A DNA stretch of 63,112 nt, the filler included, from Dugesia japonica (lineage: Eukaryota): NCBI GenBank assembly GCA_001938525.1. It is 5 parts of 5 records of this genome, joined end to end, with 100 filler letters (N's around TTAATTAATTAA, not from the genome) between each part and the next. Parts side by side here need not be neighbours in the genome. Positions count along the whole stretch, not along the records: positions 10,806 to 23,820 come from MQRL01600624.1; 4 more parts are not named here. One strand, written 5' to 3'. This document shows positions 2,620 to 54,187 of this stretch, piece by piece (position 1 is the first letter of the stretch; every line of letters begins with the position of its first letter). The notes under the pieces were generated by a model that had not been told where the DNA came from, did no database searches, and saw only the letters and a program-made list of their open reading frames with translations. Both the position numbers and the translations under genes were made by a program.

Positions 2620-3175
2620 TATTATTGGAATGAAAATAATAATAATAATGATGCAAGTGATTTATTTTATCCATTAAAAACGAATTCAGCACGATTGAGG
2701 TTGATAAATAATATGAAACAAAACGACAATTATTTGTGTGATGATAGAAATAACAAATATTATTTTAAATATGGAGATGATGATAATTCAACATTTGATT
2801 GAAGAAATAATTTGTCAAATATGAAAACATTTGACAATACAAATCAGATTGAGATGGCATCTTAATTTCGAGTAAAGAATTTAACCGATTTAGCTGGAGT
2901 CGATATGATGAGTATTGTTGAAAGACACTGAAATGAAAGATTAAATAAAAATATCGTAGAAGATTCTCATCATGATTATATGAAATTAGGGAAATATTCA
3001 ATCGATATCAGTGACAAGAATGAAAATAATTTCATCGATTTGATAAATATTTCTGATGAAAATTATTATTAAAATTATCAAACAGTTGGAGATAAAAAGA
3101 ATTTGAATGCTAATGAAAAATATTCAACCTCAAATTTGAATAATAATTATTCACAAATTGATATCCAATAATATT
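2620..3175 (+). pseudogene. Decayed copy of the Asn-rich coiled-coil gene family
   Basis: 2970-3070 matches 9650-9745 and 3106-3162 matches 5938-5993; contains in-frame stops. Confidence 0.6.
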
Positions 3176-4130: not shown

Positions 4131-5688
4131 TTGGGCTGAATTTTTAAAAAATTCATAATAAAAGTCGAATTTGTTTAAATTTTCAAGTTTTTTTAAAAAA
4201 CAATTTATGGGAATGTTTTATAGGAATCAGGGCAAACCTGATATGAAAATTTAGAATTTTTGAAATGAAATTTTTATGGGAGTCTGGTTGAACATTCTCA
4301 ATCTTTGAAAAAAAATTTTCTATATCTCAATTTTCAAAGATTTTTTGTACCAAACTACTGAGAATTTTACGGCGATCATTTTTCATAAATGAAAATTTTT
4401 TGAAAATATCTTCCTTCTCAGATAGGTCAACAAAGTGTTTATTCGATAGAATATTTCGCTAATTTCAAACATGTTAACGTAAAATCTCCAAAGTTAATAC
4501 TCGATGTAATAAATAGGGTTTTGTGGTAAAAAATCTCAAATTTTGTATTTTTGTACTCAATTTTCACTGTGTGTATAACTCGTATGATTTCAAATTTTGT
4601 ATTATTTTATTCAGGAGAAAATATGATCTTAGAAAAATTCTTCCTAACGAATATGTACAGCCGTCCTCCCGGATTTTGGTAATAATTTTCGAAAATATCG
4701 AAATTGATACTATACGATTGCTTATATAGTAAATAACAATTCGGTTGGTACTCTTAAAGTAAAACACCATTGTTTTAAAAAATACATAAAAAAAATTAAC
4801 AATAAAATTTAATATTTAAAACTTAATAGTACTAATATTTTCATGTATTAAAAACTATTTAAATTAATTTTGTTTACTATTTTTAGATTAATGTTAATAT
4901 ATTTCCAATATAAAATTTAACACGGCATTAATTGATTTCAATGTCTTTTATATGGAATAATTAAATCCAAATAATTTAATTTGAAAATTTCATTTCAAAT
5001 TTTATTAATTAAAATTTTTAGTTAGTGCAATATTATATCAAGACAATTTTTTATATTTTTAACTTTCATATACAAACTTTCTGGAAAATCGTAACAACTA
5101 TTTAAGAGAAATTCAAGATCAGAAAATATATACGATCTCAGCGAATGATAATAAAAAATCTCAAAACTGTTATTAAAAAAATTGTTTGAATATTTGTAAC
5201 TAAGATATTTAAATTATTACTGTAAAATTATCTTTTCATTTTTAAAATTATAACTAAGTAATAAAGTTTATAATATAAATGTTCTGATAATAATATTTTT
5301 TATTAATGAACTATGTATTTTCTAAATATTTATTGAATAATTAGTCAAGTTACTATTGACAACCAAGTTAATTTCCTTTAATTAATTATTTACTTATAAT
5401 TAAATTAGATTTTTTATGTTATAAAAATAAGCCACTAAATTAAATTTGAATTATTTTTAAATGCGATTCAATTTGTTCCTTTTACATTTCAGATAATTTG
5501 ACAACATCATTTCGTAAAACTATTTTACGTTTTAAGAAATATATGATATGCGATCATAATAATTTGAATAAGCATATTAAAATCTGTAAAAAATTTTTTT
5601 TTATAAATATAATTTACAAAAAGTTTTTTCAGAATTGATTTATCTACTTAGTTAATTATTGAAAAAGTAGAAACAGAAAAATAATCTA

Positions 5689-6606
5689 ATGTTTAGTAAT
5701 GAGCCTGGCAGTAATCTCACAAAAGGTAGTGAAACCAAGAAATGTCAATCAGAAAATGAAAACGTGAAACAGAATAATTATGATAATGAAGAACAAATTA
5801 ATAATTTAGAATCAGAAATATCAACTTTATCTCGAGGACAGAGTTCATCTTATACAGATGATTCTCGTATCACGAGTTTCCGTGATATACAAACAAATTA
5901 TACAAATTATCCAACAAGTTATGATAATAAGACTTCTAATGCTTATGAAAAATATTCTAGTTCTAATTTGAAGAATAATTATTCACAAATTGATAATCAA
6001 TTATATTCAAATAGAAATTATAATAACGATTTATCGAAATATAAAAATAATTATTCAATCAATAAATGTGAAAATTGTCAAAAGTTGATCTTACAAAATG
6101 ATAATGCTCAATCAGAAATTAGAAAATTGAAACTGGATATTGATAAATTGAATAAACAAAATGAATCAACAATGACAAAATTCAATAAAGAAATGAAAAA
6201 ATTTGAAACAGAAATGAACAAGTACAAATCAGAAATTAATGAAAATAAATCAGAAAAAATAGAATTGAAATCTAAAATCGATCAATTAACATCAAAAAAT
6301 AGTAATTTTCTGTCCCCATATGATCAATTATTTTACTCAAATAACAATTTGCACAGTGAATATGAAAATACTAAACTGAAAATGAACAAAGCTGAACAAG
6401 AAATTAAAAAATATATATCAGAAATTGAAAACGTGAAACAGAACAATAATGATAATGAAGAACTAGAAAAACAAATTAATAATTTAGAATCAGAAAATAA
6501 TTCGATATTTGATTCGTTTTATTCTGGAACATCAAGATTGCCAAATAATAAAAATAATTCAGGAATGAGCTACGGAAATTCTAAATCTAAATATAAGAAA
6601 AAGTAG
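5689..6606 (+). CDS. Asn/Lys/Glu-rich coiled-coil protein with CxxC (NKCENCQK); unknown function
   Basis: 305-aa open frame in very AT-rich DNA with heptad-like composition; paralogous segments at 9397-10705 and 2620-3175. Confidence 0.6.
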   Translation: MFSNEPGSNLTKGSETKKCQSENENVKQNNYDNEEQINNLESEISTLSRGQSSSYTDDSRITSFRDIQTNYTNYPTSYDNKTSNAYEKYSSSNLKNNYSQIDNQLYSNRNYNNDLSKYKNNYSINKCENCQKLILQNDNAQSEIRKLKLDIDKLNKQNESTMTKFNKEMKKFETEMNKYKSEINENKSEKIELKSKIDQLTSKNSNFLSPYDQLFYSNNNLHSEYENTKLKMNKAEQEIKKYISEIENVKQNNNDNEELEKQINNLESENNSIFDSFYSGTSRLPNNKNNSGMSYGNSKSKYKKK

Positions 6607-7954: not shown

Positions 7955-9360
7955 GGTAAATAGTGGCTCATGAGACCACTCACCCTCCGTCGGCAAACTG
8001 GGCTTAACTGTGACCTGGAATCAAATATACTGGGCTGAAAATTGGCCTGGTTTAAATATATAATGCTTTGAGACGCCGGGATCTTAGTTGATCGATCGAA
8101 TTTACATCCGGTTGAATCAATTGTGGGTCGTATTAACGACTTCGGAGAGCGACAAAGATATCGGGCGTGAACCGGCCCAGATCGCACGCTAGTAATTTTT
8201 TTCTCCTATCAACCGACCACTCCTCCCCCCGCTCCTGTGATACAGGCGTTTATCGCTAATCTTCTCTGGGGAGTCCGGGATCCGGATGGGGTGACGGATA
8301 TCGAGAACACGGCCCTTAATACTGACACAACTAATAATCAGTCCTAGTTTTGGTTGTTTTACCTAGAAATAAAATAAGTGTTTTCATCTTCAGTTATTTG
8401 TTGACTCTGCCTGTGAAACTATGTATTAGGAAGTTAATTAAAATTTTTTTTAATTTATTTTCGTGTAAAATTATGATAATACTCGTAACCAGATGTTTCC
8501 TTGTCAACTTTCATTTAATAATATGAGTGACCATGCTAATTCTATGTTTCTTATCTTAGATAATATCGGGCACAATGCAATCTTTTAAATATACTTTTAT
8601 TTTAGTGCATTCCTCATTAAACTGGTCCCTTGCCCCGACTAAGAAAGTTTCGGAAGATAGTGACGAAAAGGAAATGACCTAGGATCTGTATAAACTAGCA
8701 AAGAGGCGATGGGAGGCGGAGATCTCGACGGCCGAAGCCAAAGTAAAACGCTATAAGCGAAAATGTCTAATGTTTAAAGCGGAGATGGATGCCACCAAGA
8801 ATCAGGAGAGGGTGTGGAAGGCCCAAGTTGACAGCTTCGCCACAATTATTAAAACTTACCAGGAACGTGAAAATCAACTCGCCGAGAATATATTGAAGTT
8901 ACGGGCCACGATGCCTCTACAACCCCTCTTGATTGATAAAGGTACTCAAACCAATCGCTCCTGAGTGATCTCTGTTGTTGTGTTGCTGTTAATAAATCTC
9001 TTTATTTGTATCTTTTCGCTTTTACTTCTCCACTTTTGAACTGGGTTATTGTCAATTTAACTTTACTTTTGATTTAGTGCCACGAATTATTTTTCCCACA
9101 AGCCTGCGACGATGCCACCGGATAATGCGGCGCCTACTGGTAGAGAGGCATTTGAAACGAAAAACAAACCAAGCCCTATTGCGACACCTGGAGCAACGAA
9201 AGAAACTAATAAAGAAACTGGACGCAATAGTCAAGAAGCAGAACGACCTTGCAGTCCAAGTGAAGGCCCTAGAAGTCGAAAATAAACAATTATTAACAAG
9301 AAAAATTGAGTTCTTAAAACAATACATTGCGGATTTGTCGCGACAAATAGGCAACCCAAA
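7955..9360 (+). mobile_element. Internal fragment of a diverged family-X element (three-exon cassette, decayed)
   Basis: GC-richer island; ERQRYRA*TGPDR aligns with ERQAFYQWFGPNR (ORF 16899-17207); 8606-8964 and 9078-9360 are homologous to 17625-17979 and 18113-18495. Confidence 0.8.
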
Positions 9361-9370
9361 TTTAATTTAG
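9078..9370 (+). CDS. Element-borne basic coiled-coil (bZIP-like) exon, family X ORF3
   Basis: Starts at a tttag|TG acceptor; about three-quarters amino-acid identity to 18113-18495 by eye, with many synonymous differences. Confidence 0.55.
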
Positions 9371-9396
9371 TTAATAATGTTGGTAGAAAGAACTCA

Positions 9397-10705
9397 ATGT
9401 ATCGTCTCGATAGACCAAAAGTAATAAGAAGTAATAATAACGATACAAAAGATTCGTTTTATTCTGGAACATCAAGATTGGGAAATAATATGAAACAACC
9501 TGATAATTATTATAGTAATAACAAAGATATCAAATATAATCGAAGCGACAAAATCTATGATAATTCCATATTTGATTCATCAAGAAATATTGTTGAAAAA
9601 CAAAGAAATGAAATATTAAATACAAATTTCGTAGATTATTCTCATTGTGATGATATGAAAATAGGGAATCATCCAATCAATATCAGTGATAAGAATAGAA
9701 ATACTTTTATTGATTTGATAAATATTTCGGATGAAAATCATTATAGATCTAATTTGAATAAAAATAATTCAAAAATTGATAATCAATCAAATTTATGCAA
9801 ATATAATAATAATAATAATAATAATTATCCAATCAATAAATGTGTAAATTGTCAAAAGTGGATTTTACAAAATATTAATGCTCAATCAGAAATTGATAAT
9901 TTGAATAATCAATACAAATCGGAAATTAATATTTGTATTTGAATATTATCCGATTAAATAAAGATTATGAACCACAAATTAGGGAATACAAAACAGTAGT
10001 TGACAATTACAAATCAGAAATTGATGGAAATAAATCAGAAAATAACAAATTGAAATCAAATAATAAATTTTTATCAAATGAACTAGACAAACTGAGTAAA
10101 AACATTTGAGATTTGAAATTAGAAAATAAATCTTTGCGTAATTTGAAAATTGAAAAAGAAACTCTAAAATTGCAAATCAAGAAATATGAATCAGAAATAA
10201 AGAATTTAAACACACAAATCAATAATTTAGAATCAGAAAATAATAAAATTTTGAATAATTTGAAAATTGAAAATGAAAATCTATTATCGCAAATTAGTAA
10301 AAATGAATCAGAAATAAAGAAATTAGAAACGAAAATCAAAAAGTGTGATCTTGATAAAGAAAATAAAAATAATAATTGTCAAATCAACAGATATAAATCA
10401 GTTATAAATAAATTCACACCAGAAAAAGAAGGAACAAGATGTAGAACTGCTGAATCGAATAAACACAGTAATAATTTGTTTAATCAATACGAAAATGAAG
10501 AAATTAATAATTTAGAAAATAATAAAATTTTGAATAATTTGAAAATTGAAAATGAAAATCTAAAATTACAAATTAGTAAAAATGAATCAGAAAAAGAAAA
10601 ACTGCAAAGCGAAATCGATCAATTAAAATCAAATAATGAAAATCTGCAGTCCAAACTTGATGATTTGTATAAATCAAAAAATCAATTATTTGGCAAATAT
10701 GAAAA
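9397..10705 (+). pseudogene. Second copy of the Asn-rich coiled-coil gene (interrupted, runs into contig end)
   Basis: ORFs 9397-9942 and 10113 onward share DSFYSGTSRL, NKCxNCQK and QINNLESENN with 5689-6606; in-frame TGA at 10107. Confidence 0.55.
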
Positions 10706-10805
10706 NNNNNNNNNNNNNNNNNNNNNNNNNNNNNNNNNNNNNNNNNNNNTTAATTAATTAANNNNNNNNNNNNNNNNNNNNNNNNNNNNNNNNNNNNNNN
10801 NNNNN
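10706..10805. other. Artificial contig-joining spacer (N44-TTAATTAATTAA-N44)
   Basis: Exactly 44 N + TTAATTAATTAA (stops in all six frames) + 44 N; an identical structure recurs three more times. Confidence 0.97.
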
Positions 10806-11929: not shown

Positions 11930-14900
11930 CTAAATATTTAAATTAATTATAAGTTGACTAACTTAAAAATAATTTTTATTTAATAGCATTATTTTAATTA
12001 AAGGAACATAATTTTAAGAAAGCAAGTTTATTTTCAAATTTTAATTTAGCTAAAACAATTATTGAATATTATGAGAAATAAATTTAACAAGAAACAATAA
12101 AAAATATACAAGGCTGTAAAGTCGCAAAATTCTCTTTAAAATTACCTCATCTATAAATTTAGAAAAGAAATTAATACATTTTTTAAAACAAATAAAATTT
12201 TAAAGCATGTATAATTTTTATACTGAATTGATTAATCATTTTAAATTTATAAGTATTTATTTTTATATAAATATGAAAGTTTGATTAGATTAATCATAAT
12301 ACTCTGAATTTTGTTATTTGGTAGATTTTCATTGAAAATGTTTAAAAACTCAGTTTGTTTAAAAAAACGTTTTACACTATTGTAAAGTGATGTTTGTATG
12401 TAGAAAAAGAATGGTTTTATCATATTACAAACTTTGAAAACCTCAGATTTTTATAGCTTATTATAGCTTTAATTTTGAAATTATATTTTCTTAATTAAAA
12501 TTTTAAATTTCAGATGTTCTTCAAATTGGTTAATTTGTATAATTGNTATTTTGTATAAAAAACAAAAAGTTTTTTAAGAATAATTGGTATTTAGAGAAAA
12601 TATTTTTTTAAATGTAGCGTTAACTTACTAAATTATTTTCCTTTAAAAATATATTATGAATTTAATTACCACATTTGTACTGAGACTAAATCTCACATAA
12701 CGCGCAATTAACTCCCGCGTTTTCCCATTTATATTACACTTAATTCCTAATTAAGAATGAACTTTAAATTGCGGAATCAGTCTAACTTCGAAATTCTCTA
12801 ATAGTATTAAATACATTTTGTTGAATTTCCATGAATTTTGGTCTTTTTTTGAATTTCTTGGTTTTGTCACAACTCGAATGCTAAGAGTGTGATTCATGAG
12901 AACCACGGATATTTATGGATGTNTCACATTTGTCTTCAAAGATATCCTAGTGACTCTGCATCTCTTACAGAGTTGACGAAATTCTTTCTGTAGGGTTAGT
13001 GATTAAATCACTAGCTCGTCTTACTATTGCTTAGACATAATAATCCAAAAGTGCTTGGCTCAGTACTTCACTTATCTTTTAATGGGCGCAGAAGTTTAAA
13101 ACTTACGTTAAGCATAAACTAGCTACACATAATTTGAATAATGTTGGGATCCTGAGAGCTTTCACGATGCTTAAACGATCAAGTTATTTATTACATTAAT
13201 ATTTCAATGTACAGACTAAAAAATCAGTTAAAAAATGGCAAACATATGAAATATCCGTCAAAAAAAGATTTTGAATGAAGTCCATGTCTGGTGACTGAAA
13301 ATTCGTAGTAGCATCCGCCATTTCGAAAACAAACAAAATAAGAGTTGTCTTTAAATAGCACTAGAAAATAATCTGTCTTCAACTCAATATGTTTGAAAAT
13401 CTATCTTACTTCTTTCAACAGCTGCTGTTATCACATAAAATTCATGAACTCATATGTATTAATAACTCTATCTGAACTCAACGAAAGATGAATGGTTACT
13501 CAGTAACCCATATTCCTCTCTTAACTTTATACTGGTTAGAACTATATTGCTGATTGGAGATTCATTCATACCTGGAGAACAAACTCTCTGTTTGTAAATG
13601 ATCCTCTTAGCAAGAAAGAAGTTCGTAAATGTCGACTTAGCAAATTTTTATCAGAAGCTCAGATACATATAGTTATCTGGTGTCAATACTCAAATAATTA
13701 CTGCTATAAGAATTTGAATTCTCTGGCTTTCACCATGTTAAATTATTCACAGATAAAATTTATTTTTATTATTTTTAAAGGTAAATTGTGTAAATAAATA
13801 AAGAAAATAGAATAAATTATTGCAAGAAGTGTATACATTATTATAATTATTAGCCGCTGCTTTATTTTTCCTAGTTTTAATCTGTAAATATTTATTAATA
13901 AGTGATAAGTTATAAGTAAATTCAGTGAAAAATTTATTCTATAACAAAATAGTAACATTAAAGCATTTAATTGTCTTAATTATTTTCTTCCTTTTGTTGG
14001 GGTAAAAAACGCCCGCTAAACGGGAGTAAGCTGAAAAATTAAAGCAACGGATAATAAGCACGGGACCACAATAATCACCGNNNNNNNNNNNNNNNNNNNN
14101 NNNNNNNNNNNNNNNNNNNNNNNNNNNNNNNNNNNNNNNNNNNNNNNNNNNNNNNNNNNNNNNNNNNNNNNNNNNNNNNNNNNNNNNNNNNNNNNNNNNN
14201 NNNNNNNNNNNNNNNNNNNNNNNNNNNNNNNNNNNNNNNNNNNNNNNNNNNNNNNNNNNNNNNNNNNNNNNNNNNNNNNNNNNNNNNNNNNNNNNNNNNN
14301 NNNNTGAAATTCGCTGAAAAATCTATTTTATCCGGATAACTTTGCTCCAGGAAATCGGAAAGAATCGGGATAAAAAAATGAAAAGAGCACATTACGGTGC
14401 AACTGAAATTATAAAAAAGAAAAACGTACCACCTTCCAGAAGGGTACCACAAGACTTTTAAGATCCGGCCAATAGAAAACCTGAAATTAAAAATATAACA
14501 AAGACCCAAAAATCATGTGGTCTGATAAAAATAGCTGCCAATAGTAGCACCAAAATTCAGAGAAAATTTTAGAAAATCAGCACGAGAACCAATGGAAGTA
14601 GAAAAAAGCTGATCTAAAAATATCAGCAAATCGGGGCATAGTTGGGGTGTAAGTCAAACCCTATGAAAGGAACCTGCAAATTTAGAATAATATAACTTTT
14701 TGAGAGAATTCAGTAAAACATCTGACTCCTAAACTATAATTTGTGAGGATATTGAATCGAAGTAATCATACAACTTATACTATCCTCGGCCAATCTCAAA
14801 ATCAAACAGTTAGTCAAATCGGAGAAATTACTTTTCCATTTTTAAAAAAATTTCAATTCAGAAACTCCATTACTTTCACGGAAAGGAAAGAAGGAATCAT

Positions 14901-16898
14901 AGTGATCCCTAAACGTTCAGTTCCTCAACAGAATAAAAATAAAACAGAAGTAATTTGTCTCTCCAATAGACTACTCTACATTCGTGCTAATCTTCCGTTG
15001 CAGAAAACCCGTTAATTGAAGTAAAATTTTATTCTAATTCNNNNNNNNNNNNNNNNNNNNNNNNNNNNNNNNNNNNNNNNNNNNNNNNNNNNNNNNNNNN
15101 NNNNNNNNNNNNNNNNNNNNNNNNNNNNNNNNNNNNNNNNNNNNNNNNNNNNNNNNNNNNNNNNCTATTAAGTAAAAGGGATTAATTCCATTTTTAGAAA
15201 TTTTTGATTTCATAATCAATATTGTTTAACAGTTGTTGCAATTAGATTTATAGGTAACTTCCCGGCTATTTTTAGAAATAATTATGTTACCATAAATAGC
15301 CCAACCACAGTAATATTTTAAATGATCTGCCAATGTAGATTTAACATCGATCTATTTTTAGTAATTTTCCCCTCCTGGGCAGTCAACAAATTACCACAAG
15401 TGTAAATTTCTAAGCTATCTAAACAGCCATGTTATCTCAACAATGTATGAAACAGACTGATGTCAATTCCCAGATAAAATATATATAAATGATTCTTTCG
15501 ATTGAATTTAGAAAGAAAAATAACTGTCTATCACACACGGCGTTGCCGGAATTAACAATTAGCGACTTAGTTCCAACTCGGCATAAAATTCGTAAGCTGA
15601 TCAAATCACTCCATGGAAACAGAAACGTAAATCCAGCGGTGAACATCTAATATAATTTAGCTGTCACTCATCACACACGCATGCATGCACCCCGGACACA
15701 CCCACAGTGTGCATCACACATCTACTACCACAATAAAAATAAATCGAGTACAATGTTATGACCTTGAACAGTAACCAGGGGCAACCCAAACCCTCGCAAT
15801 TTAAATAGACATAATTTTGAAAAAATCCACTATGATTAAATTTTCACTCCTAATTCCGATAATCTAATATCATCACAAGTCGTTCAGGCCGGTATCCAGC
15901 AATCGATAATAAATTCATTTTGAATCGCTAAGTAAACAATTACAAGAATTTACCTATATTAGGTATGGGTGTTGCTTATCATTCATCTAACAAATTGAAT
16001 AAAAAAAATGTGGTTTTGGTGGTAGAATATTGCGCACGATAAATCATTTAAAATATGTTTGCTGATTAATATAGCGTAAAATGGTAACAACGTGGCATTC
16101 CATAAATTAGAGCCCAACACTCTAATTTTTCATCATTTTCTGGGATTTTTCGCATGGCTGATTTATAAATAAGATCGAAGCTATTGAATAAAACAATAGA
16201 GAAGTCAATACTGGCATCGGTAACTCTCCAGGAAATTATTGAGTTTAATATATGAGAAATCACCGTTTTGATTTACGCGTTTTTTGGAGGAACTCAATTT
16301 TTAATTATAATTCGTAACGGCTAGGATTTCCGAATTAACTTCTGGAGATAGTTAGGTGATGGGAAAAACATTACCATATTTATTAACTTCCGAATTTTTC
16401 TGCTTAATTTAAAGTAAAATAGGTTCATTTGTTTTGATAGATCATCCAGTCNNNNNNNNNNNNNNNNNNNNNNNNNNNNNNNNNNNNNNNNNNNNNNNNN
16501 NNNNNNNNNNNNNNNNNNNNNNNNNNNNNNNNNNNNNNNCTCTCGCACGGGGTAATCGAACATCCCGACGACACGGATTTAGCGTGTCTCGCAGAAATGT
16601 TTCCTCTACCTACTCCAGTGGATCTTGATGAGGAGTGAACTTACTAGACAAGGAAAACCATTGCTGACCCTAGTTCGCCTGAATAAAATATAATCGTCCT
16701 CGTGACTTATCTGTTGTTTTGAAAATCGGCTCGTAGAGTTGAATTACTATTATAACTATTCGTTGATTTTTTAAAATTTTTTTGTTGTTGTCAAAAAAGT
16801 ACTTGTTATTGTAGACACAGCTAAATGGATCACGTATGGGAACTGCTATGCGATCGCCGCACGGGGCGTACCATATTTAAAAGATATAAGAACCCAGC

Positions 16899-17207
16899 AT
16901 GACCGTAACGCAGGTATCTATAACAGATTATTCTAACATGCCCAGTGAAGATGCAGATAATGAAAGAGAGGTAGTCGCTGCAGAGCGTCAAGCTTTTTAC
17001 CAATGGTTTGGTCCAAATCGTATCCAAGAAGTACTAAATCGGACCACTGGCTTGGATCCAATAGTTAATCAGTCCATTAGTCAGTGGCGGGATGGGCCGT
17101 CATTGTCGCCGGTGTCACTCACCCACCTTCCCAGAGGTACTAGATTCTCTCTAGACATCGGTAACACTCTGTGGGATCTACGAAATCAAGCTAGTGGTGG
17201 CATCTAG
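16899..17207 (+). CDS. Family X ORF1 (hypothetical)
   Basis: Open frame homologous to the decayed 8060-8200 region; candidate acceptor tgtag| at 16814. Confidence 0.4.
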   Translation: MTVTQVSITDYSNMPSEDADNEREVVAAERQAFYQWFGPNRIQEVLNRTTGLDPIVNQSISQWRDGPSLSPVSLTHLPRGTRFSLDIGNTLWDLRNQASGGI

Positions 17208-17624
17208 AAAATGCAGAACCCACTTCCTGACCATCTATGTTACTAGTGTGTCAGTATCATGATTTTCATAATTCGAATACATGTTTGTGTGTCTATTAGA
17301 TATTTTCTTTTANNNNNNNNNNNNNNNNNNNNNNNNNNNNNNNNNNNNNNNNNNNNNNNNNNTGATTTTCATAATTCGAATACATGTTTGTGTGTCTATT
17401 AGATATTTTCTTTTATCGAGGGCTCTTCAGCCGTTACCTATGTACATTTCAATATTTTCATTGTTATGGGCTTTTCTGCCATTACCAAAAGCTTCCCCTT
17501 TTTTGTAGAAACCGACCAACTATGAATATTTAATAAACTATAACAAAAAGAATTAATTAATTATATCTTTTGTTTAGGTTACATAAATTTCTAAATCTTG
17601 CTCGCGTTAATGTGTATCTTTTAG

Positions 17625-17979
17625 TGCATTCTTCATTAAATCGCCTTGCGGCCCTTACCAAGAAAGTGCAAGATAACAGCAAGGAGCGCAAGATGACATG
17701 GGACCTGGATCGATTAGCCAAACGTAAATGGGAGGCGGATACAGCCAACGCCAATAGTAAGGTAAGCCGCTACCGAAGGAAATGTGTGGCTTTCAGAAAA
17801 GAAGTCGAAGGCTCCCATGCACAAGAGAATGAAAGGGGCAAGTGGAGTCACTGGTTGACATGATCCGGTCCTACCAAGACCGAGAAAATAAACTGATGAA
17901 TGACGTTTTGAAGTTGAAGGCTTCCATGCCACTCGAACCGTTAATGGTAGAGAAAAACACTCAGACCCATAAGAATTAA
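17625..17979 (+). pseudogene. Family X ORF2 coiled-coil exon ending in KxTQT (one frameshift near 17835)
   Basis: tttag|TGCATTC acceptor shared with 8606; the C-terminus MPLEPLMVEKNTQTHKN* aligns with MPLQPLLIDKGTQTNRS* (8770-8964). Confidence 0.6.
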
Positions 17980-18112
17980 ACTGAGGGCTCATCTTTGTTA
18001 ATAAATCTTGTAGTTTGAACTGTCTTATCGATTTACTTTTCATTGTTTTCTTTATGTGGGTAGTCATTTGCCAATGTGAAAATTCTATTAACATTAACAT
18101 TAATTTCTTTAG

Positions 18113-18495
18113 TGCCTCGTATCCATCTCCCGAACAGTCTTCGTCGGTGCCACCGCATTATGCAACGACTTCTTATCGAACGGCATTTAAAGCGTAAAGT
18201 AGACCGAACAATGCTTAATCAATTATCGCAGAAGAACAGACTGATAAAAAAGTTAGATCTCATCGTAAAAAAGCAGAACGACCTTGCGACTCAAACAAAG
18301 GCCTTGGAAGCCGAGAATAAGCAATTATTGTTAAGAAAAATCGAGTTCTTAAAACAATATATTGCTGATCTGTCCCGTCGAATAGGTCACCCATCTGTAA
18401 CACAATGGGATGAGGAGGACGACATCGCCGCTTTCAACTTCGCGGTAACGGAACCAGATCAGTGGTTAGATCCTGGGGCGCTAGATCTGCTTTAA
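18113..18495 (+). CDS. Family X ORF3, basic coiled-coil (bZIP-like) exon with acidic tail
   Basis: Intact frame from the tttag|TG acceptor; conserved with 9078-9360; followed by AATAAA. Confidence 0.6.
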
Positions 18496-18754
18496 ATTTT
18501 TTTTTATAAAATAAAATGTCTGTGTTCGAATTTAGAATTTCTTATTTTCAACAGTAACAATAAAGGAAAATCATTGAACCCGAATATAAAGGTTTACTGG
18601 TGCGTACATTCCGTTAAGAGTAAGGTCAACCGCCATAAACTGAAAACCTACCCCAAGGGCGGTAGGGTAAATTTTTGATAGGGTTCCCCTGAGGGCTGTT
18701 TTTTCCCCAGCCATCGTGTTGCGACACTCAACTCAGGTGGGACCCCAACACTTT

Positions 18755-19120
18755 TATTTTAAATTTCTTTCATGATTAATACATAAAACCTTAATGAAAC
18801 TCTTTAAGAAATTTTAACTTGTCCATATTTCTGTAAATAACTCTTTCTTACCTGTTGTATAACCTCTACCTTCTTTCATGGATATTTTCCTTTATCAATT
18901 ATGGGTCATTGTATCTTTCCTTGTTCTTTGACTGTACTTCGTTTTTCACAAATACTTTTTAACAAATTTTGAAGGCATAACGAGTTGAGTATCATTCTAC
19001 ACTGGTCAACCTCTCTTCAACCTCTTCGTGATCGATTCATCGTTCTCTTCAAATCTCTTTACCTTACACCAAGACTACTTAGATAGTTTTAATCGTCTTT
19101 TGATGTGTGGCGTTCATCAT
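18755..19120 (-). mobile_element. Gypsy integrase C-terminal remnant
   Basis: Minus strand MMNATHQKTIK and VKNEVQSKNKERYNDP*LIKENIHERR resemble IKIETRNKSQDKFA*PYQIIERIHERR at ~31700-31780. Confidence 0.55.
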
Positions 19121-20419
19121 GTACTATAATTATAAATTGATAATTAATAATTATTTTAATTTCTCTATTCAAATTACAAGATTTACATGAAATTGTTTTT
19201 CAAATTAAGTGAAATTAATAATTTTTTATAAGTTTTTTCAAGGGAAATCAATGAAAAAGCAATTTTTGTATAAATTAACCATAACTTTCAAATGTTTAGA
19301 TAGTTAAGCTAGGTCTCACTCGGGCTATAGTAACATTAATATTAGAAGCTCTCTGGGCAATATTGTCCCTTAAATTTGTATCTATGTCAATAAAATCCTC
19401 TTCTTTTAGTTTTTATTATCATTAGTTGCTTCACCAAACAATAAGCTCTTCTTCCGAGGAAATAGCTGTTTACTTGAATAATTAGCCACTATAAAATTCC
19501 CGTATAAAATATATTCTCAAGAAAAAAATCATTGTTGATTTTTATGTTTGAGTAAAATTATTAACAATAATATCATTAAAAAGTATTTTCATACATTGCT
19601 TCAATAACAGTTTTGTTTTCATTCAATGCCGTTACATTACCTCATTTGACATGTACAATCAAGCCGCAGGTATTCCATCCATTCACATCCGGTCTAAAAT
19701 TGTAAACGCAGATATTGTTAATATCCAACCGGGTACATTCATAATTGAACCTATCGATTAGATTGCGTAGTTTTCACTAGGCTAAACTCGATTAAAGAAT
19801 GTGCATATCCAATGGCAGAGCTTCCGGCTATTTTGATTTGGTCTCAATTGTACACCAAACAAAAACTAGAACTGTCTTTATCTAATCTATATGTGAGAAA
19901 TAATAAATCAGACACTCTATAAACCCGTTTAACTGTGTACAACATACACAACCCAATAGTCATTAAACACTATAAACGATAAAATTATGTATGTGTCAAC
20001 AAATCAATGAACCTTTTTTGAGAATTTATACACCGATACACACGTGTCTTACATAACCGTTGACATACTACATAATCAATTGCATTGTAATCAAAATAAT
20101 TGTAAAGTCTTATAGTGTTTTATAGGGATTCTATAGGGTATTACAAGATCTTTGCAAGAATGTTTTGAAAAGCGGGTTGAAATTTTTGTGTGTCGTTGGA
20201 AATCTTTTTNNNNNNNNNNNNNNNNNNNNNNNNNNNNNNNNNNNNNNNNNTAAATTTTTGCACAAAAATTAGGAATTAGTTTAATGATTAGTTAATGACT
20301 TTTTTTGTTAATGATAAAAATATTTTAATTAATAAATTAAATAATAAATGGCTATTTACTTAAAACGTCAAAAATATTTTTAATTGAAAATTTAATTATA
20401 TAATAAAAAATTTTATTTT

Positions 20420-21489: not shown

Positions 21490-22920
21490 ATCTTCTTAAA
21501 AGCGATAGTATTTATGCATCAACCTAATAACTATAAATTTATTTAATAAAACAAGGTGAAAGAGAAACTAAAAATTAATTAAAATAATTTATTTTAATTC
21601 CTATTGGTTGAAATTTTTCCTAATTATTTCTTTAAAACCCTTTTCTTAAGAAACTTTCAAAGTTTTCACATTTCTCATCAATCACTTTCCATTTTCTCTT
21701 TGTACTGCACACGGTGTTTGTGAATTTTCTCAATTATTCAATTAAAACCTAAAAATTTGTCTTGGCTATTATTTCCTTTTTTCTACTTTGATAATCTTCT
21801 ACTTTGAATTCTCTATTAATAATCACTTCTGAAATAGTTTCTTCAGTTCTTTCTGAAACGTCTGACATGTATCATTTTCTCAGCTGATTTTCTTTTAAAA
21901 TACGATCTTAATCGAGCTCTTTCCAATCATCTTCTGCTTAGTTGGGTTTATCGTAAATTCTATTTCCAGTAAAATGTCTGCCAAATCTGTCTTCTTTCTC
22001 TTTTAAAATGTTGTATTAATTAAACCTCGAATTGTCCTGAACAATCACTCAATTTGTCCGTTTGCATTGTAATGATATGGACTTGAAAAGCAAAGTTTAA
22101 TATTCAGCTTCTGTACAAACTCTCTCATAACTTTGGATTCCAAGGCTTTCCCANNNNNNNNNNNNNNNNNNNNNNNNNNNNNNNNNNNNNNNNNCCGCTT
22201 CTCAAAAAAAGCTTTTCGTACTGTTTCTTAGTCTTGTCTACTCAACACTATACGAACCCGATATTTACTGATCTGGTCGATTATTTCAGGAATACATTTT
22301 TTCATCCACTTGTTTCCCGCATTAGCCCATATATTTCTGTGAACATGACTTCGGACAAATTGGTAAATTCTTAATTTAATTATATTCTTTTAATTATATT
22401 CATTGTCTTCTCTTTAATTGCTGTACTCATTACTTTGGTATTCAGACAAACTTCACAACTACGAAGTATTTCCTGTATTGGTCTCCATAGATTCTCTGCA
22501 ATATGTCTGTCTCTTATGTACCCTAACATCTTTTCAACTCCTGCATGACATAATAATGTCGTGTACTTTGTTATCCAGAAATTTTGTTTTCGTGATTAAG
22601 TTTTTTCTTCAGAAATGTTTAATTCTTCTTCTTTTTTCTTTTCTATTGTTTGCAGTACTTTTGTTTTAATTTTTTCTTTCTTAGCATCTTCATGTGACAT
22701 TTGACATTATACACATACCCTACATCTTGGTCTAGATAATATATATGCATTACCATGTAGAATTTCTTTTCCATATTCTAATACCATGTACAAACTACTA
22801 AGATAATTAATCCATTTCTGGAATTGTAATGTAATTGGTTTCTTCGTGGTCATCATGAAACATAAAGCTTTATGATCTGTCATAATAGCAAACTTTCAAC
22901 CGCACAAGTTATTAGATATT
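21490..22920 (-). mobile_element. Gypsy LTR retrotransposon 3' fragment (RNaseH-integrase-PPT-LTR), related to 27930-32045
   Basis: Minus strand encodes SSPYHYNANGQIE and a TEICGL-type integrase core; purine tract aagaaaaggg at ~21640 is followed by LTR-like aagaaataatta...ccaatag. Confidence 0.75.
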
Positions 22921-23820
22921 TTAAGATAACTAAGTGGCAGGAATTCAATCCAAATCTAATACAAAACTTAAGATAATCAAATTAATTAACTTTGATATAA
23001 GATCGTAGTAGGATTTTCTCCAAAATCTAATATCAAACTGATCAATACACGGTATATTTTTAGAAAGGTCTGAACACCCACTTGATTTTAAACTTATTTT
23101 AATACTTTTTATTAATTTGATTCCCAATTCGCGGCACCAAATTTGTTGAGTATTTCTACTCAACAAAGAGATGTTATGGTTNGTATTTGAAACTATTGTA
23201 AAAGATATAGGTAACTAATTTTACGGGTGTTTGATCTTAATTGATTTTCTTGTATGTCAATACGATATTTGATAAGCGATATTTTATTAAAGTATGAGTA
23301 TAGTTATATAGTGTATGAAATCCTATATAAATAATTAAATAACAACCTTTCAATAATATTTTATTTTTGANNNNNNNNNNNNNNNNNNNNNNNNNNNNNN
23401 NNNNNNNNNNNNNNNNNNNNTTTATTAATTTGATTCCCAATTCGCGGCACCAAATTTGTTGAGTATTTCTACTCAACAAAGAGATGTTATGGTTTGTATT
23501 TGAAACTATTGTAAAAGATATAGGTAACTAATTTTACGGGTGTTTGATCTTAATTGATTTTCTTGTATGTCAATACGATATTTGATAAGCGATATTTTAT
23601 TAAAGTATNAGTATAGTTATATAGTGTATGAAATCCTATATAAATAATTAAATAACAACCTTTCAATAATATTTTATTTTTGATGTATAAACAAATATCA
23701 AAGACGTATAATACAATCTTATAGGCAGAATTGAAATTAAATGAACTACTGCCGCTCTGAGAGATTGGAGTGTTCAATAATTTTGAAGTCTGTTTAACAC
23801 TAAAAAACGATCAGTATATA

Positions 23821-23920
23821 NNNNNNNNNNNNNNNNNNNNNNNNNNNNNNNNNNNNNNNNNNNNTTAATTAATTAANNNNNNNNNNNNNNNNNNNNNNNN
23901 NNNNNNNNNNNNNNNNNNNN
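23821..23920. other. Artificial contig-joining spacer
   Basis: N44-TTAATTAATTAA-N44. Confidence 0.97.
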
Positions 23921-24698
23921 TAAAACCTTTGCAATATAATAAAAATCTTGGTATACAAGCTCAAAAATATGCGGAAGTACTTGCTAAAAAAGATGTCATG
24001 GAACATAGTAAAAACGAAGATCGAGATAACGCTGGAGAAAATTTAGCATTGAGCATGATGGAAGTCACTGATTACAAATATTCTGGTAAATCATGTTTAC
24101 ATTTGATAATTTATTTCTTATTGTCTATAGGGTTGGGAGCAAGTGTAAGTTGGTATTCGGAAATNNNNNNNNNNNNNNNNNNNNNNNNNNNNNNNNNNNN
24201 NGGGAATCCGGCAACTGGTTAATAATTCTTATCAATTATAATTCTTAATTTATTCAGGTCATTTTACTCAGCTCATCTGGGAAGATTCAAAAGAAGCTGG
24301 TTTTGGAAGAGCAATGAATAAAGAATCTAAAATATGGTATATTGTCGGTCGTTATCAGCCACCAGGGAACTTTGTAGGAAGCTATAAAGAAAAAGTATTG
24401 CCTTTACCAAAAGGAAGTTAGCTCTTTTCATCAATTTATGCTTATATAAAATTACTAAATAGAAAAATGGGACACAATTCCAATTGTTGAAGAACGCTTA
24501 GAAGAGCTCCGAACTATTGAATATACTAAAGCTCGTAAACATATATTAGATAAATGGTCGGCCGAATGGGAAATGGGAACAGATAACGGTGTATATTTTT
24601 GCAATATTACTGAAACATTTACAACTCCAACTGGATCAAAATATACTGGAACAAAGAGTTTCTCAGAAGATCCCAGTGAATTAGTATGTATCAAATAA
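23921..24698 (+). CDS. CAP/SCP (GLIPR2/GAPR-1-like, venom-allergen-like) protein, 5' truncated
   Basis: Exons 23921-24085, 24131-24217, 24258-24416 and 24463-24683 with 45/40/46-nt GT-AG introns; motifs HS..., GENLA, WYSE, GHFTQLIW, VGRYQPPGN. It either ends at TAA 24698 or splices on from GTATGT at 24684. Confidence 0.9.
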
Positions 24699-28119: not shown

Positions 28120-31100
28120 TGGTGGCAATGGTCAATACCGATTCCAATACAGAGAGGTTATTGCTGAAAGATTTTTGCAGAGGAGATGACATTGAAAAAT
28201 TCATCAAGCAGTGTGAATTGTATTTTGAAGAAGAGATTAGTCTCTTGTATGTTAGATGAAGATTTGTTGGAAGAATTTGCAAAAACTTTGAAAAAAGTTA
28301 AAGGATTTCAGGGTCATTAACGTATGGCATTTAAGAAAGAGAAAGATGCTATCAAAGATTTTCAAAATTTGATTAACTACAGGTGTGGAAATGAAAAGAT
28401 TCAAAATTATTTTAAAAATGTAAAAGATTTAGTTGAAAGATTATTTAAAAATAAAGATTTTACTTAAGAAAAAATGGTAGCAAAGATGCTAGTATATTGT
28501 TCAGATAAAAAAAAAGTTAAAAAAGAAGTAACTTTGAGGAAACGAGAGAATATAGAAGAAATTAAAGAAACAATAACTTTAGTAGATTGACTAGAGAAAA
28601 ACCGAGATCGAGTTGATGCAGTTAGAGTTACAAATCGAAATTATCAGAAACCTGTAAATCATACAGTGAATAGACATGTATAGCAAAGAAAAGAAAAATA
28701 AAATATCGAATGTTGGTCATGACATAAGATCGGTCATACTAAAGCGAGTTGTCCGACAAAAAAATTGGAAGTGTGCTAGAATTGTCATAAAACAGGACAT
28801 ATAAGCTGAGATTGTTCAAATAAAAAACCAACAAAATATTTTGGATGTGAAAAGATTGGTCATATTAGAAGGTTATGTCAAGAAGTAAGGTGTAAACGAT
28901 GTGGAAATGGTGGACATAGAGCAGAAGAGTGCTACACAAATTTGAAAGCGAAAAGAACAAGTGAGAAATTTATGACTGCAGTAAGATCAAGAAACCGATA
29001 TAATCGAGTACATGCGATTGCACATGAAGATGTCCGTATAAACGATGGATATGAGAAAGTATATGAAAGTGATTCTGAAAGGCATTAACCAAACGCCAGA
29101 GCTCCACCAGTAGAGTAGTTGGTTGGAGCCATCCATTTTTAAATGAAGTTAGTAACTATCATCAAGGGATCAAAAAGTGAGATGAGATAGGAAAATTTAT
29201 AGAAAAAGTATACAGGTTCTTACAGAGGGAAAATTTTGTGGATGGTAGAAAAGTAGAATGGTTTGGAACAGATGAAGCATATAAGAAAACAAATATTTCG
29301 TAACATAAATGGCAAGGCAGATCAAGTGCTACAGTATCAATTCAAGGAAATAAAGTCGAATGTCTATTAGATACATGGGCTAGAATTAACGTGATGAATT
29401 TGAGTTGTTTTAATAAATTACGAGAAGTAAATTTAAAAATGAGTAATGAAAAATTGCTTTGTGCACATTGTAGTACACTTGAAATTGTTGGGAAAGTTAG
29501 AACTGGAGTGATAATTGATGAAGTTTGCGAAGAGATTACTTTCTTAGTTGCTGAAAAAGTAACACCAGATATGAGAAATAGATATTCAAAAGATATTTGG
29601 ACAATTTAGTACACTTGAAATTGTTGGGAAAGTTAGAACTGGAGTGATAATTGATGAAGTTTGCGAAGAGATTACTTTCTTAGTTGCTGAAAAAGTAACA
29701 CCAGATATGAGAAATAGATATTCAAAAGATATTTGGACAATTTCGACAGACAATTGAATGCAGTAACGAAAGGACAAGCCTTTCCTAGGAATAATGTCGA
29801 TGAAATGCTGGACAAGTTAGATGGAGCCAAATATTTCAGTTCAATAGATTTAGGTAATGCATACTTTCAGGTAGAGCTCGAAAAAGAATTTCAAGAAAAA
29901 ACGGCGTTTTCAACAAAGCATGGACAATATTGTTTTAATAGAATGCCATTTGGCATAGCAAAGGCACCAGGGACATTTCAATAGATGATGACGAAAGTGG
30001 TAGGCTGAATCAATGGAGCCATGGTTTATCTTGTTGACATTTTGATATTTACGAACAATAAAGAACAACACTATGAAGTCATTGAAAGAGTATTGACGGA
30101 AATAATGAAGGCTCGACATAGAATTAATCCAGAGAAGTATCAGTTTCTTCAAAGCGACATCAAGTTTCTTGAACATATAATTAACAAAGATGGAGTCAGA
30201 ACTGATCCATCTAAAATAGAAGCACTGAGAACATTTGGCAAACCTAACTGTGTGAAGAAGTTTCTTAGGAAAATGTAATTATTATAGAAAGTTTATAGAA
30301 CACTACGCAAGAAAATCAAGGATCTTAGAGCAGTTGTGTAGCAAGCCAAGCAAAAAAAAATTAGAATGGACAGATGAAATAAACGATATTTTTGATGGTC
30401 TAAAAAAATTTCTAATGACTGCACCCATATTGTGTTTTTCAGACATAAACAGTATTGTCACAGAACGATAAGGAAGGAAGAGAAAGAGTTATTGCCTATG
30501 GATCACACTCAATGACGAGTCATGAAAAGGGATATTGCATCACACGAAAGGAGTTTATTGTTTCTACATGCACTTTAAACACTTTTTGTATGGTAGACGA
30601 TTTACTCTTAGAACAAATCATAAAGCGCTAACCTTCATGATGACAACGAATAACTTGCGTCACAATTTCAGACATGAATTAATTATCTGAGTAGTCTAGA
30701 CATGGTTTTGGAATAAAGAGAAGAAATTCAACATGGAATGCAGATATGTTATCTAGACCAAGATGTGAGGTATGTGTAAAATGTCAAATGTCACATGAAG
30801 ATGCAAAGAAAGGGAAGAATAAAACGAGAATAAACATGATAGAAACAGAAAAAGAAGAGCAATTATACATTTCTAAGGACACAGATTTAATCTAGAAAAT
30901 AAAAATTTCGGAGGACAAAATACTTAAGACAATAGAAGAAATACATAAATTAATATGTCATGCAGGAATTAAGAAGGTGTAAGAATACATGAGAAACAAA
31001 TAAATTGCGAAGAACTTGTGGTGCCGAATACAGAAAATAGTTCGTAGTTGTGAAATTTGTCAGAAGGTTAGTGACGACAGCAACTAAAGAGAAGACAAAG

Positions 31101-31855
31101 AAATTAGAAGCTACCAATCTGTTTGAAGTCATATTCATAGATATATGTGGGCCAATGCAAGAAGCAAGTGGACGAAAAAAATACATTCTTGGAATAATCG
31201 ACCATTTTAGTAAAGATCTGGTTCTTATACTATTGATTAGACAAGACGATAAAACAATACGAAAAGCTATTTTTGAAAAGTGGATATTAATATTTGGATG
31301 TCCAAGAGAAATAAAACTCGATTGTAAAAAAGCTTTTAAATCCAAAGTTATGAGATAGTTCGCTCTGAAGTTGGATATTAAACTTTGCTTTTTGAGTCCC
31401 TATCATCATAATGCAAACAAACAAATTGAATGACAGTTCAGGACGATTCGAGATTTGATAAATGCAACACTTCAGGAAAGAAAGACAACAGATTGGGCAG
31501 ATCTTTTATGGAAAGAAGATTAGCAGAGAAAAATGGTATGAGTCACTTCAGGAAAGAAAGACAACAGATTGGGCAGATCTTTTATGGAAAGAAGATTAGC
31601 AGAGAAAAATGGTATGAGTCAGACGTTTCAAGTCAAACTAAAGAAAACACTTTAAATGAGAATACAAATAGAGAATTTAAAGTGGGCGATTTTGTACTCA
31701 TTAAGATAGAAACAAGAAATAAAAGTCAAGACAAATTTGCTTGACCTTATCAAATAATTGAGAGAATTCACGAAAGACGGAATGCAGTACAAGGAGAAAA
31801 TGGACCGCCATTAGAATAAAATGTGGAAAAACTTAGAACATTTTTAAGAAGAGGA

Positions 31856-32045
31856 TATAAGAAAATAATTATTATTTAATATTTTTAGCCAATAGAAATT
31901 GAGTTAATTCAGTACTACGTTTCAATCAGTTCTTTTCAATGATAATTATTTTTAAATATCAGTGTTGTAGTAGTAAAATAAATGATGTCCCAAAATATTA
32001 GTTCTAATTTGGAAAATGAATTACCAATTGAAGATTTAACTAACA
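31856..32045 (+). repeat. 3' LTR
   Basis: Preceded by the polypurine tract; ends in ...TAACA. Confidence 0.92.
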
Positions 32046-34479: not shown

Positions 34480-34617
34480 TCATTAATCAGAAATTATTGA
34501 AATATAAAAGATACTCATGATTATAATATAATTATGATACTTTATAATTATTATCATTAGTATCCTGTAAATTTCAATAATTTCTGATAAAAATTAAACT
34601 GATATTTATATTTACAG

Positions 34618-50356: not shown

Positions 50357-51621
50357 CAGCGATGGATCTAGGGAATTTTCATTGGGGGCGATATGAAAAT
50401 AATTACGTTATTTATTATGTAATCGACCGGAAATTAAATTTTTAGTTTAAAAAAAGTAAAACTAATGATTTTTTTACATTTACAAAAATAAAATTTTAAT
50501 TAATTTTCACGGAAATCCAGTAGAAAAGTCCATTGTTTAAATATTTTTTTTAAATAAAATTTAATATTTTCAAAATGAAGAAATTTAACTAAGGCTTAGG
50601 CCAAAATGTTTTTTTAAATTTTATTAGGGTTAAAAATTACAAAAAATTTAATTTTCTTAGACCCCAATTTTCGATTTTATCTTCTTCTGGAGTTGTGATT
50701 AAATAAATTGAATAAATCAATCACAACTCTAGAAGAAGATTAACTCGAATATTTGGCGAAGTAAGTTAAATGTTTGAAAGTTTTAACCTTAATAAAATTT
50801 TAAAAAACATATTTTGATCTAAGCTTTAGTTTATTTTCTAAATTTTGAAAATATTTAATTTTATGATTCAGAGATCAATGGTTAAAAATTTTAAACAAGT
50901 GAATAATTACCAAATAAGTAACTGTCACAATAAACAAAATTTTTTTACAAATAATTCAAATTTTCATGGGAATCCGGGTGAACAGTCCAGGTTTTTCAAA
51001 AATATTTTTTATGCTCAGATTTTAAATACTTTTATACAAATCTGTTAAGAATTTGATGGGGGTCATTTTTGGTTTTTTCAATATTTTACAGACTTTTCGA
51101 AAAATAAAAAGTATTTCAAATTTTATCATTAACCCATCTATTCAATAGAGAATTTTATGCTGAGTTAGAATAACACGAGTAAAAATCTCCAATACGTATT
51201 TTAGAGGATATTAAATGAAAATACCAATAAAAAACTAACAAGTACAATTTCTATATAAGGTTAATTTTTATTATAAAATTTATTTAATTCATCATTTTTA
51301 GTATTTAATTGTTTTTACAGTAGATAGATAGATGATCCTAAATTACTAAACCAACATTTCAAACTAAATTTCTAAACCACTTTGTAATATGGGGATGTGG
51401 TTTAGTGCGCCACAATTTATCTACTTTATTTTTAATCTACAATTATTTTTATCGTATTCATTTCAACTTTTTGATACAAAACTGTTTTTAATTATTCTTC
51501 TTTACATTTTCATTCTACTATACTAATATTCACGTGGATAGTCGCTCCTTATCATTATATAACCTTTTCGAAAACTGGTTATTGGGACTGATCGCCCCCC
51601 CTCACCGTGGATTCGTCGTTG
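50357..51621. mobile_element. Non-autonomous hAT-like DNA element inserted in the Gypsy fragment
   Basis: Imperfect TIRs CAGCGATGGATC / (rc) CAACGACGAATC with subterminal GGGGGCGAT; degraded 8-bp TSD CCTAAATA / ACTGAATA. Confidence 0.65.
50560..50850. repeat. ~280-bp imperfect palindrome (foldback)
   Basis: Arms 50679-50700 and 50719-50740 are near-perfect reverse complements, and the symmetry extends outward. Confidence 0.8.
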
Positions 51622-53335: not shown

Positions 53336-54187
53336 AAAATTTATTTATTATAAAATTTATTACAGATTTTATTTTGGAGTTAATGTTATTTACAAAAAAA
53401 TTAATATCTACTGTCGCGGAAAAATATCGATGATATATTGCGGTTATCAATGAATGAAGCTCTGGTCTAGTTTATGAATAAAATAAGTAAATAAATTTGT
53501 AGGTAACAATGGTCTAAAAAATAAACTATTAATCTTATAAAGTAATAAAGGTTTATTTAATCTTTGTTATACATAAATAATTTTACTTTCTGTACAAATT
53601 TTCTGAAGAAATTTGAATTTAAATGTATTTTATTAAACGATTTAATTACTGTCAATTTAAAAAACGATGCGTAAAAAATAATTTATCAAACACGTGAAAA
53701 TATTTTTGTATTTTTGATGTTGGTTAGCACAATACTGCTTCAGTATTACTTGATGAATACCCATAATTGATTGAGGTATGCAAATTAAACCCATTTTTAT
53801 CCATAAACGAAGTGTTTATTNNNNNNNNNNNNNNNNNNNNNNNNNNNNNNNNNNNNNNNNNNNNNNNNNNNNNNNNNNNNNNNNNNNNNNNNNNNNNNNN
53901 NNNNNNNNNNNNNNNNNNNNNNNNNNNNNNNNNNNNNNNNNNNNNNNNNNNNNNNNNNNNNNNNNNNNNNNNNNNNNNNNNNNNNNNNNNNNNNNNNNNN
54001 NNGAATTATTTTCACTTTTTTCTTTATAAATATAAATTTTACTAGATATTCGGATATTTTTTTTAATAATTTTAAAATAATAATACGCGTGGAAGATATT
54101 TTCTAACATTGTTAAAATTAGATTCAATTAAACATTGAATTAAACATAAGAATTTATTTTAATCTAAATTTAACTAAATTTATTTAG

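Follow-up and report, generated by a model that had tools for sequence, protein, structure and literature searches.

Structure and ends of the insertion

The stretch of DNA analysed here (the window; 63,112 nucleotides, filler included) joins five parts of five records of the Dugesia japonica assembly GCA_001938525.1. The part taken from MQRL01600624.1 carries a 4,756-bp unit on the plus strand (13,995-18,750), which is a real mobile insertion with exact ends, a target-site duplication (TSD) and a repeat family. Most likely it is a solo long terminal repeat (LTR) of a giant Gypsy-type retrotransposon. The left end of the unit is TGTTGGGGT from 13,995 and the right end is ACCCCAACA, its last base being 18,750. 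The termini are of the TG..CA type and fit TGTNR, a pattern described for the ends of Gypsy LTRs, and the outermost bases on either side (13,995-14,003 and 18,742-18,750) are the arms of a 9-bp inverted repeat without further extension. The left arm is invariant in the two other 5' ends of this family found by alignment in the window. A perfect CTTT duplication encloses the unit (13,991-13,994 and 18,751-18,754). Given the left end, the chance of finding such a right end together with a TSD within 10 kb is about 5e-5.

Four of the 24 listed public runs were compared: X1 (DNA, by our guess) and X4 (kind unknown) as whole contigs, and X17 and X20, which are oligo-dT RNA runs. An empty-site contig is present in both whole-contig runs. 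It joins 13,990 to 18,751 and skips 4,760 nucleotides, that is, the 4,756 of the unit plus one CTTT, showing that the insertion is polymorphic. The depth of this contig is 13.6 in X1 and 7.7 in X4, that of the left flank 13 and 10.2, respectively. In X1 the contig continues for 500 bases into the right flank with a single difference and thus very likely represents the same locus. Length, TG..CA ends and perfect duplication of the unit, as given in the original prediction, are therefore exact in the sequence and confirmed by the empty site, and the Gypsy-integrase signature read from them (TGTNR ends, short inverted repeat, 4-bp TSD) indeed sits on a mobile insertion.

The same signature brings to mind a non-autonomous Ginger1 or Ginger2 DNA transposon. 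Ginger elements have TGTNR ends and a 4-bp TSD in common with the unit, and Ginger1 genes have introns, according to the part of PMC2836005 at hand. However, the terminal inverted repeats (TIRs) given there are 40-270 bp for Ginger1, with CCGG/CCGT targets, and 50-180 bp for Ginger2, with RTATAY targets, against 9 bp and CTTT here; the integrase gene of Ginger elements is absent from the unit as well. The match to Ginger elements that the original prediction had set against its own reading was thus not found, TIR length and target site both failing, and we regard such an origin as extremely improbable.

Four runs within the unit, 486 nt or 10% of its length, are masked. A 53-bp direct repeat flanks one of them, marking a local duplication (17,260-17,415, plus strand, by self-comparison). 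The right flank at 18,876-19,250 is itself repetitive, with a depth of 564-2,925 and partly aligned RNA reads; the insertion thus probably took place next to or within an older element.

Protein-coding exons within the unit

No reverse transcriptase, integrase or transposase was found in the unit, as had been predicted: its open reading frames (ORFs) match no Pfam family at the family's cut-off, and the longest unmasked plus-strand frame has 143 codons. The four masked runs are too short to hide such a gene. Rfam gave no match, and no tRNA was found in the unit. What the unit does hold is a series of small exons, two of which, C (17,625-17,979) and D (18,113-18,495), both on the plus strand, could be compared with a related copy at 8,596-9,365 (plus strand; nhmmer and alignment). 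The two copies are 65-70% identical at the nucleotide level; in the 8.6-kb copy exon C has an early stop and exon D is cut off near 9,370. For exon D (93 codons) the proportion of synonymous differences (pS) is 0.82 and that of nonsynonymous differences (pN) is 0.16. For exon C, compared in two parts of 65 and 47 codons, pS is 0.83-0.84 and pN 0.30-0.32. In the other two frames of the comparison the ratio of nonsynonymous to synonymous change (dN/dS) is 0.8-2.3, so that constraint is confined to one frame. Exons C and D are clearly protein-coding and under protein-level selection.

This protein-level constraint begins at the AG acceptor, ahead of the first ATG. Over the interval separating the two, the first, second and third codon positions match in 12, 12 and 3 cases over the 14 codons of exon D (Fisher p 8e-5) and in 14, 16 and 6 cases over the 21 codons of exon C (Fisher p 1.4e-3). 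The acceptors of both exons are in phase 1 in the unit as well as in the 8.6-kb copy. In both copies exon C ends in a stop codon followed by AATAAA (at 18,000 in the unit) within a short conserved block of 12 nt, so that C and D do not follow one another in a single protein; the frame of exon D is open and its AATAAA lies at 18,510. From the sequence, C and D each have a stop and an AATAAA of their own and resemble alternative last exons that would require an upstream donor. Selection on them and their conserved acceptors bear out the small ORFs of the original prediction, and the AATAAA at 18,510, 240 bp from the end of the unit, is the poly(A) signal it had placed there. The plus strand of the unit has 13 AATAAA motifs. 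One lies no more than 43 nt from five of the six stops examined, against a background of 3.6 per kb, the exception being exon B (324 nt away).

Two further candidate exons, A and B, have a layout like that of C and D. Candidate exon A (16,441-16,638, plus strand), found by sequence scan, has a T-rich acceptor, is open over 61-65 codons, GC-rich and partly masked, and is accompanied by AATAAA at 16,682. Candidate exon B (16,815-17,207, plus strand) is also GC-rich, with a 105-codon frame (16,890-17,207) and an acceptor that was read by eye and not flagged by the scan. Its frame and start are uncertain since related contigs carry single-base indels near 16,896-16,920. Compared with the 8.6-kb copy, exon C of the unit has a frameshift near 17,830; judged by this frameshift and by the indels in exon B of related contigs, the unit copy is decaying.

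The product of exon C is coiled-coil-like and matches no Pfam family at its cut-off. That of exon D would have a basic N-terminal part, a long helix (predicted residues 7-90) and an acidic tail; AlphaFold predicts one 84-residue helix (pTM 0.44). The exon D product has no homolog among 5.8 and 1.8 billion proteins (near its length or longer) or in Atlas, and the exon B product none in Pfam or Atlas; the best Atlas scores (0.78 for D, 0.79 for B) are leads only. Two representative hits to exon D proved to be sums of weak repeats in unrelated long proteins. Proteins of the bZIP type have a basic region with invariant Asn and Arg ahead of a leucine zipper. We rejected exon D as a bZIP protein, since no bZIP family of Pfam matches it at E 0.1 and the second copy does not retain the Asn.

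Promoter-like block and 3' terminal module

Two other pieces of the family, both on the minus strand and detected by nhmmer and alignment, contain 5' ends. The first (932-1,580) comprises the terminus and a block with CCAAT and TATA boxes, part of it being repeated at 558-644; the second occupies 1,950-2,579. Their 5' ends, at 1,580 and 2,579, share the 9-bp terminus with the unit and about 70% identity over 14,307-14,690, where homology ends. In the three-copy alignment this interval (plus strand) is a conserved non-coding block and a candidate promoter, with three aligned CCAAT boxes (14,469, 14,538 and 14,589) and a TATA-like site. Stops interrupt all six frames in all three copies, yet 52% of the columns are invariant and there are 12 invariant runs of at least five bases. 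An internal near-copy of the terminal GTTGGGGT motif at 14,641 (14,640-14,648) directly precedes the TATA-like site and is invariant in all three 5' ends. TATATAA follows the block in the two other copies and occurs in degenerate form in the unit. Family depth over the block is high.

The 3' terminal module (18,559-18,750, plus strand) is a candidate R/U5 region with AATAAA at 18,559 and TATAAA at 18,585. It is hairpin-rich and the deepest-covered part of the family. Its structure is modest: folding gave z -2.25 for the last 141 nt (2 of 200 shuffles) and z -1.84 for the last 251 nt (18,500-18,750). The unit thus has two candidate promoters, at 14.3-14.7 kb and at 18,585. Either could be the main one: U3 would then be giant and have an additional promoter upstream, or it would measure 700 bp and be accompanied by a giant R.

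In the fragment ending at 1,580, a 326-bp tandem duplication (318-1,018; 91%), absent from the unit, lies downstream of the TATA box and carries a periodic CAAGT(T)G motif, as seen by eye.

Family copies and abundance

The original prediction had placed family fragments at 258-1580, 1960-2579 and 7955-9360. Homology was found for 558-644, 932-1,580, 1,950-2,579 and 8,596-9,365; it did not extend to the whole range from 258, and neither nhmmer nor frame comparison detected any to the unit in 7,955-8,595. A proposed homology of exon B to 7,955-8,347 was not accepted: the best of nine frame pairs had z 2.3 (9 of 300 shuffles) and nhmmer found none. At the position of exon B, 7,955-8,373 (plus strand) has a GC-rich broken ORF with a stop and AATAAA, without detectable homology to exon B, possibly a swapped exon.

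The depth of matching contigs, summed at 85% likeness, is 10-13 in the left flank. In X1 it rises to 12,000-14,000 across the 5' block, 63,000 across exon C and about 155,000 (154,550) near the 3' end. It is lowest, 45-290 in both whole-contig runs, over 14,844-16,379. Summed contig depth is not a copy number; its unevenness points to a large and diverse family in which the middle is private to subfamilies. Collections of metagenome and viral contigs contained no relative of the unit. The single 19-mer matched in a collection was dismissed as chance (56% GC, no further homology).

One explanation for such a private middle is a chimeric or Pack-type element, in which the short terminal modules of an ordinary LTR family surround captured exons of a host or another element and the coding signal is inherited from the donor gene. 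The homology of both 5' fragments ending near 14,690 and the undetectable homology upstream of exon C in the 8.6-kb copy fit this explanation, as does the very uneven depth. However, exons C and D keep their order, acceptors and AATAAA block in a copy that is saturated at synonymous sites, indicating that selection acted within the family. Moreover, exon C is among the most deeply covered parts, and exon D has no cellular homolog. Capture is thus very unlikely.

RNA evidence

In X17 and X20, about a quarter of each run being read, 78 and 10 reads, respectively, fell on a 5.75-kb stretch comprising the unit and its flanks. None is identical at 99%, three are at 95-99%, and 87 of the 88 are only partly aligned (77 of 78 and all 10). 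No splice joint, no start or end pile-up and no 99%-identical read was seen in these two runs. The subfamily of the unit looks silent in both samples, which fits the piRNA silencing of planarian Gypsy-like elements reported in the available part of PMC8532177, without proving it. Splicing of the unit's exons is inferred from their sequence: of the spliced cassette in the original prediction, the conserved phase-1 acceptors stand in the sequence, and the two RNA runs provided no splice joint. Its proposal that solo LTRs would spread genes across the genome is weakened, given that C and D are internal phase-1 exons without a start exon. The frameshift in exon C and the lack of spliced or 99%-identical reads leave the spread of working genes unproven.

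Evolutionary interpretation

Taken together, these features make it likely that the unit is the solo LTR of a giant Gypsy-type retrotransposon resembling Burro or GLT, to which it is likened by description rather than by sequence comparison. In this scenario, a Gypsy integrase would have inserted a full giant element, producing the 4-bp TSD, and recombination between the two LTRs would then have removed gag-pol, leaving one LTR. In the latter, as many as four last exons (A-D) would be used alternatively, every one of them terminated by a stop and a poly(A) signal of its own. Splicing of each to a common phase-1 donor exon further upstream would yield several small accessory proteins, of which two would be coiled-coil. 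The simplest location for the donor would be the leader or the gag region of the complete element, by analogy with the spliced regulators of complex retroviruses; the solo LTR would then be headless and silent. Alternatively, the donor may follow the conserved CCAAT/TATA block (14.3-14.7 kb).

As expected of a solo LTR, the unit is not preceded by a polypurine tract (PPT; 1 purine in 15) or followed by a primer-binding site (PBS), and no gag-pol adjoins it. Another Gypsy family in the same window shows the normal junction of LTR end and PBS. The depth profile, with its maximum at the 3' end and its minimum in the middle, is as it would be if R/U5 were shared and U3 had diverged. A flatworm host, indicated by the tubulin frame described below, the giant Burro elements known from planarians and the AATAAA, TATAAA and hairpins of the 3' module also favour a solo LTR.

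Remnants of this other Gypsy family lie at 21,596-22,892 and 23,108-23,683 (minus strand) and at 28,812-32,043 (plus strand). Near 23,140 its LTR end is followed by a PBS-like TGG stretch, tandemly duplicated over 263 bp. Its pol pieces are 70% alike and in opposite orientation, with an rve match at 31,041 (E 7.5e-7).

Several observations, in addition to the RNA results above, weigh against a solo LTR. No copy flanking gag-pol, a PBS or a PPT was seen in the window or among 18 of about 1,118 loose contig ends, none of these being at the termini. PPTs are missing upstream of the two other 5' ends in the window, with 6 and 8 purines in 15, and the Gypsy pol remnants of the window show none of the unit's sequence by homology. 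Within the unit, 10% of which is masked, neither a start exon nor a conserved donor was found, and for exons A and B the family fragments of the window provide no second copy for comparison. The promoter-like block with the best conservation is situated 4 kb away from the 3' end, unlike the normal position of a U3 promoter, and the layout of the unit also reads as one self-contained gene. Finally, the whole-contig runs contain three further joined forms near the site (13,989 to 18,761 in both runs, 13,989 to 18,803 and 13,993 to 18,775), which may be other haplotypes, paralogous flanks or repair scars. Of the solo LTR with a U3-like cassette proposed in the original prediction, the Gypsy-type insertion thus stands, whereas the paired copies, PBS and PPT were not seen and the 5' CCAAT/TATA block also allows a giant-R or internal-promoter layout.

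A different possibility is that the unit is no LTR and is complete as it stands: a non-autonomous linear element, consisting of a multi-exon transcription unit with retroviral-type att ends, that is moved whole by an integrase-like enzyme acting in trans. The promoter-like block at the 5' end and the poly(A) signal near the 3' end can be read as one gene, a perfect TSD surrounds a single unit, and all four family pieces in the window are without internal retro-genes; the extra joined forms could be excision scars. Yet the inverted repeat is merely 9 bp, the exons have no start exon, and the clean empty site holds a single CTTT without a footprint. The literature searched contained no element class of this kind, and a solo LTR accounts for the same data by a known mechanism. 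We therefore consider a linear element unlikely. Similarly doubtful is that the unit is a self-sufficient gene module, in which the 5' CCAAT/TATA block would drive a first exon that could be spliced to any one of as many as four last exons; solo copies would then make small coiled-coil regulators without gag-pol and may move whole by a borrowed integrase.

Comparison with known systems

Coding sequence within an LTR is familiar from retroviruses: the sag gene of mouse mammary tumour virus (MMTV) and the nef gene of HIV lie within U3, each as a single ORF in an LTR of 1.3 kb or shorter, with no array of alternative last exons. The accessory ORFs of foamy viruses and of Cer1 share one poly(A) site. 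As described in the accessible part of PMC3185757, foamy virus tas and bet resemble the exons of the unit in being small spliced accessory ORFs, one of which reaches the 3' LTR, with an internal promoter. Cer1, according to the part of PMC10309623 available, expresses the export factor CERV from a spliced mRNA. In these systems the ORFs lie mostly outside the LTR, so far as the available accounts go, whereas here up to four exons lie wholly within a putative LTR, each with a stop and AATAAA. Judged by its layout, the unit would work like a retroviral accessory-gene region, a comparison that we regard as putative.

The closest size class is found in flatworms. The Burro1-4/GYPSM1 elements of Schmidtea mediterranea exceed 30 kb with an internal region of up to 25 kb, implying LTRs of several kb; they have accessory ORFs and may be proviruses, as stated in the accessible part of PMC6431247. 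The unit shares with these elements a flatworm host and Gypsy-type ends, and has small accessory ORFs of a regulatory type as they do; its size would fit the multi-kb LTR class. The accessory ORFs and domains of Burro/GYPSM1 are assigned to the internal region or the polyprotein, that part of the paper mentioning no coding exons inside the LTR, and of the domains it names (BIR, MATH, BCL2, ankyrin, env) none was found in the unit. GLT2 is piRNA-silenced according to the part of PMC8532177 at hand, which would fit the lack of reads for the unit. By eye, 400 of the 485 letters of the GLT2 probe (Table S1 of the same paper, reverse strand) read as an AT-rich intron, a T-rich AG acceptor of the same phase and an open coiled-coil-like frame, as in exons C and D; this by-eye likeness is only a lead. 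For GLT, the part of PMC8532177 at hand gives no structure. Two of the four GLT/GLT2 primers (one GLT2, one GLT) were tried and have no match in the window at three mismatches. The accessible parts of PMC11410931, PMC13238120, PMC13309565, PMC10954484 and PMC10309623 added nothing on LTR structure.

No description of several selected, alternative last exons arrayed wholly inside a putative LTR of 4.8 kb was found in the literature searched, Grohme 2018 and Repbase lying outside that search; the repeat itself may well be catalogued already in Repbase or in the Grohme library. Giant retrotransposons of planarians are believed to interfere with the biology of host cells, and Burro1 has been reported to be protective of stem cells (available part of PMC13465017, citing another study). 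If the solo LTR interpretation is true, the exon array would represent a retrovirus-like regulatory layer in a Gypsy element and would account for the great length of these LTRs. Furthermore, with each insertion or solo LTR, strong splice acceptors would be dispersed together with poly(A) sites, and these could cut host transcripts short. The exons of the unit are also a source of orphan proteins amenable to RNAi and long-read RNA sequencing.

Other features of the window

Coiled-coil ORFs rich in Asn and Lys, which carry a CxxC motif and are 72-85% alike at the DNA level, form a family at 2,765-3,175, 5,671-6,606 and 9,310-10,757; its Pfam matches are weak and to coiled-coil families only. 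One of these ORFs adjoins the truncated copy of exon D at 9,370. Palindromic elements resembling MITEs (miniature transposable elements with inverted repeats), 80-83% self-complementary, lie at 34,483-34,591 and 50,554-50,864. By eye, a hAT-like transposase fragment (58,170-58,997, minus strand) and a CAP/SCP-like exon (23,869-24,222, plus strand) were recognized, with no Pfam match in the stretches scanned. Finally, 54,178-55,848 (plus strand) contains a 556-codon frame for a divergent alpha-tubulin whose acidic tail is long. Its nearest named relatives are tubulins of parasitic flatworms: trematode, monogenean and cestode matches reach 63-67% over most of the query, most other animals about 53%.

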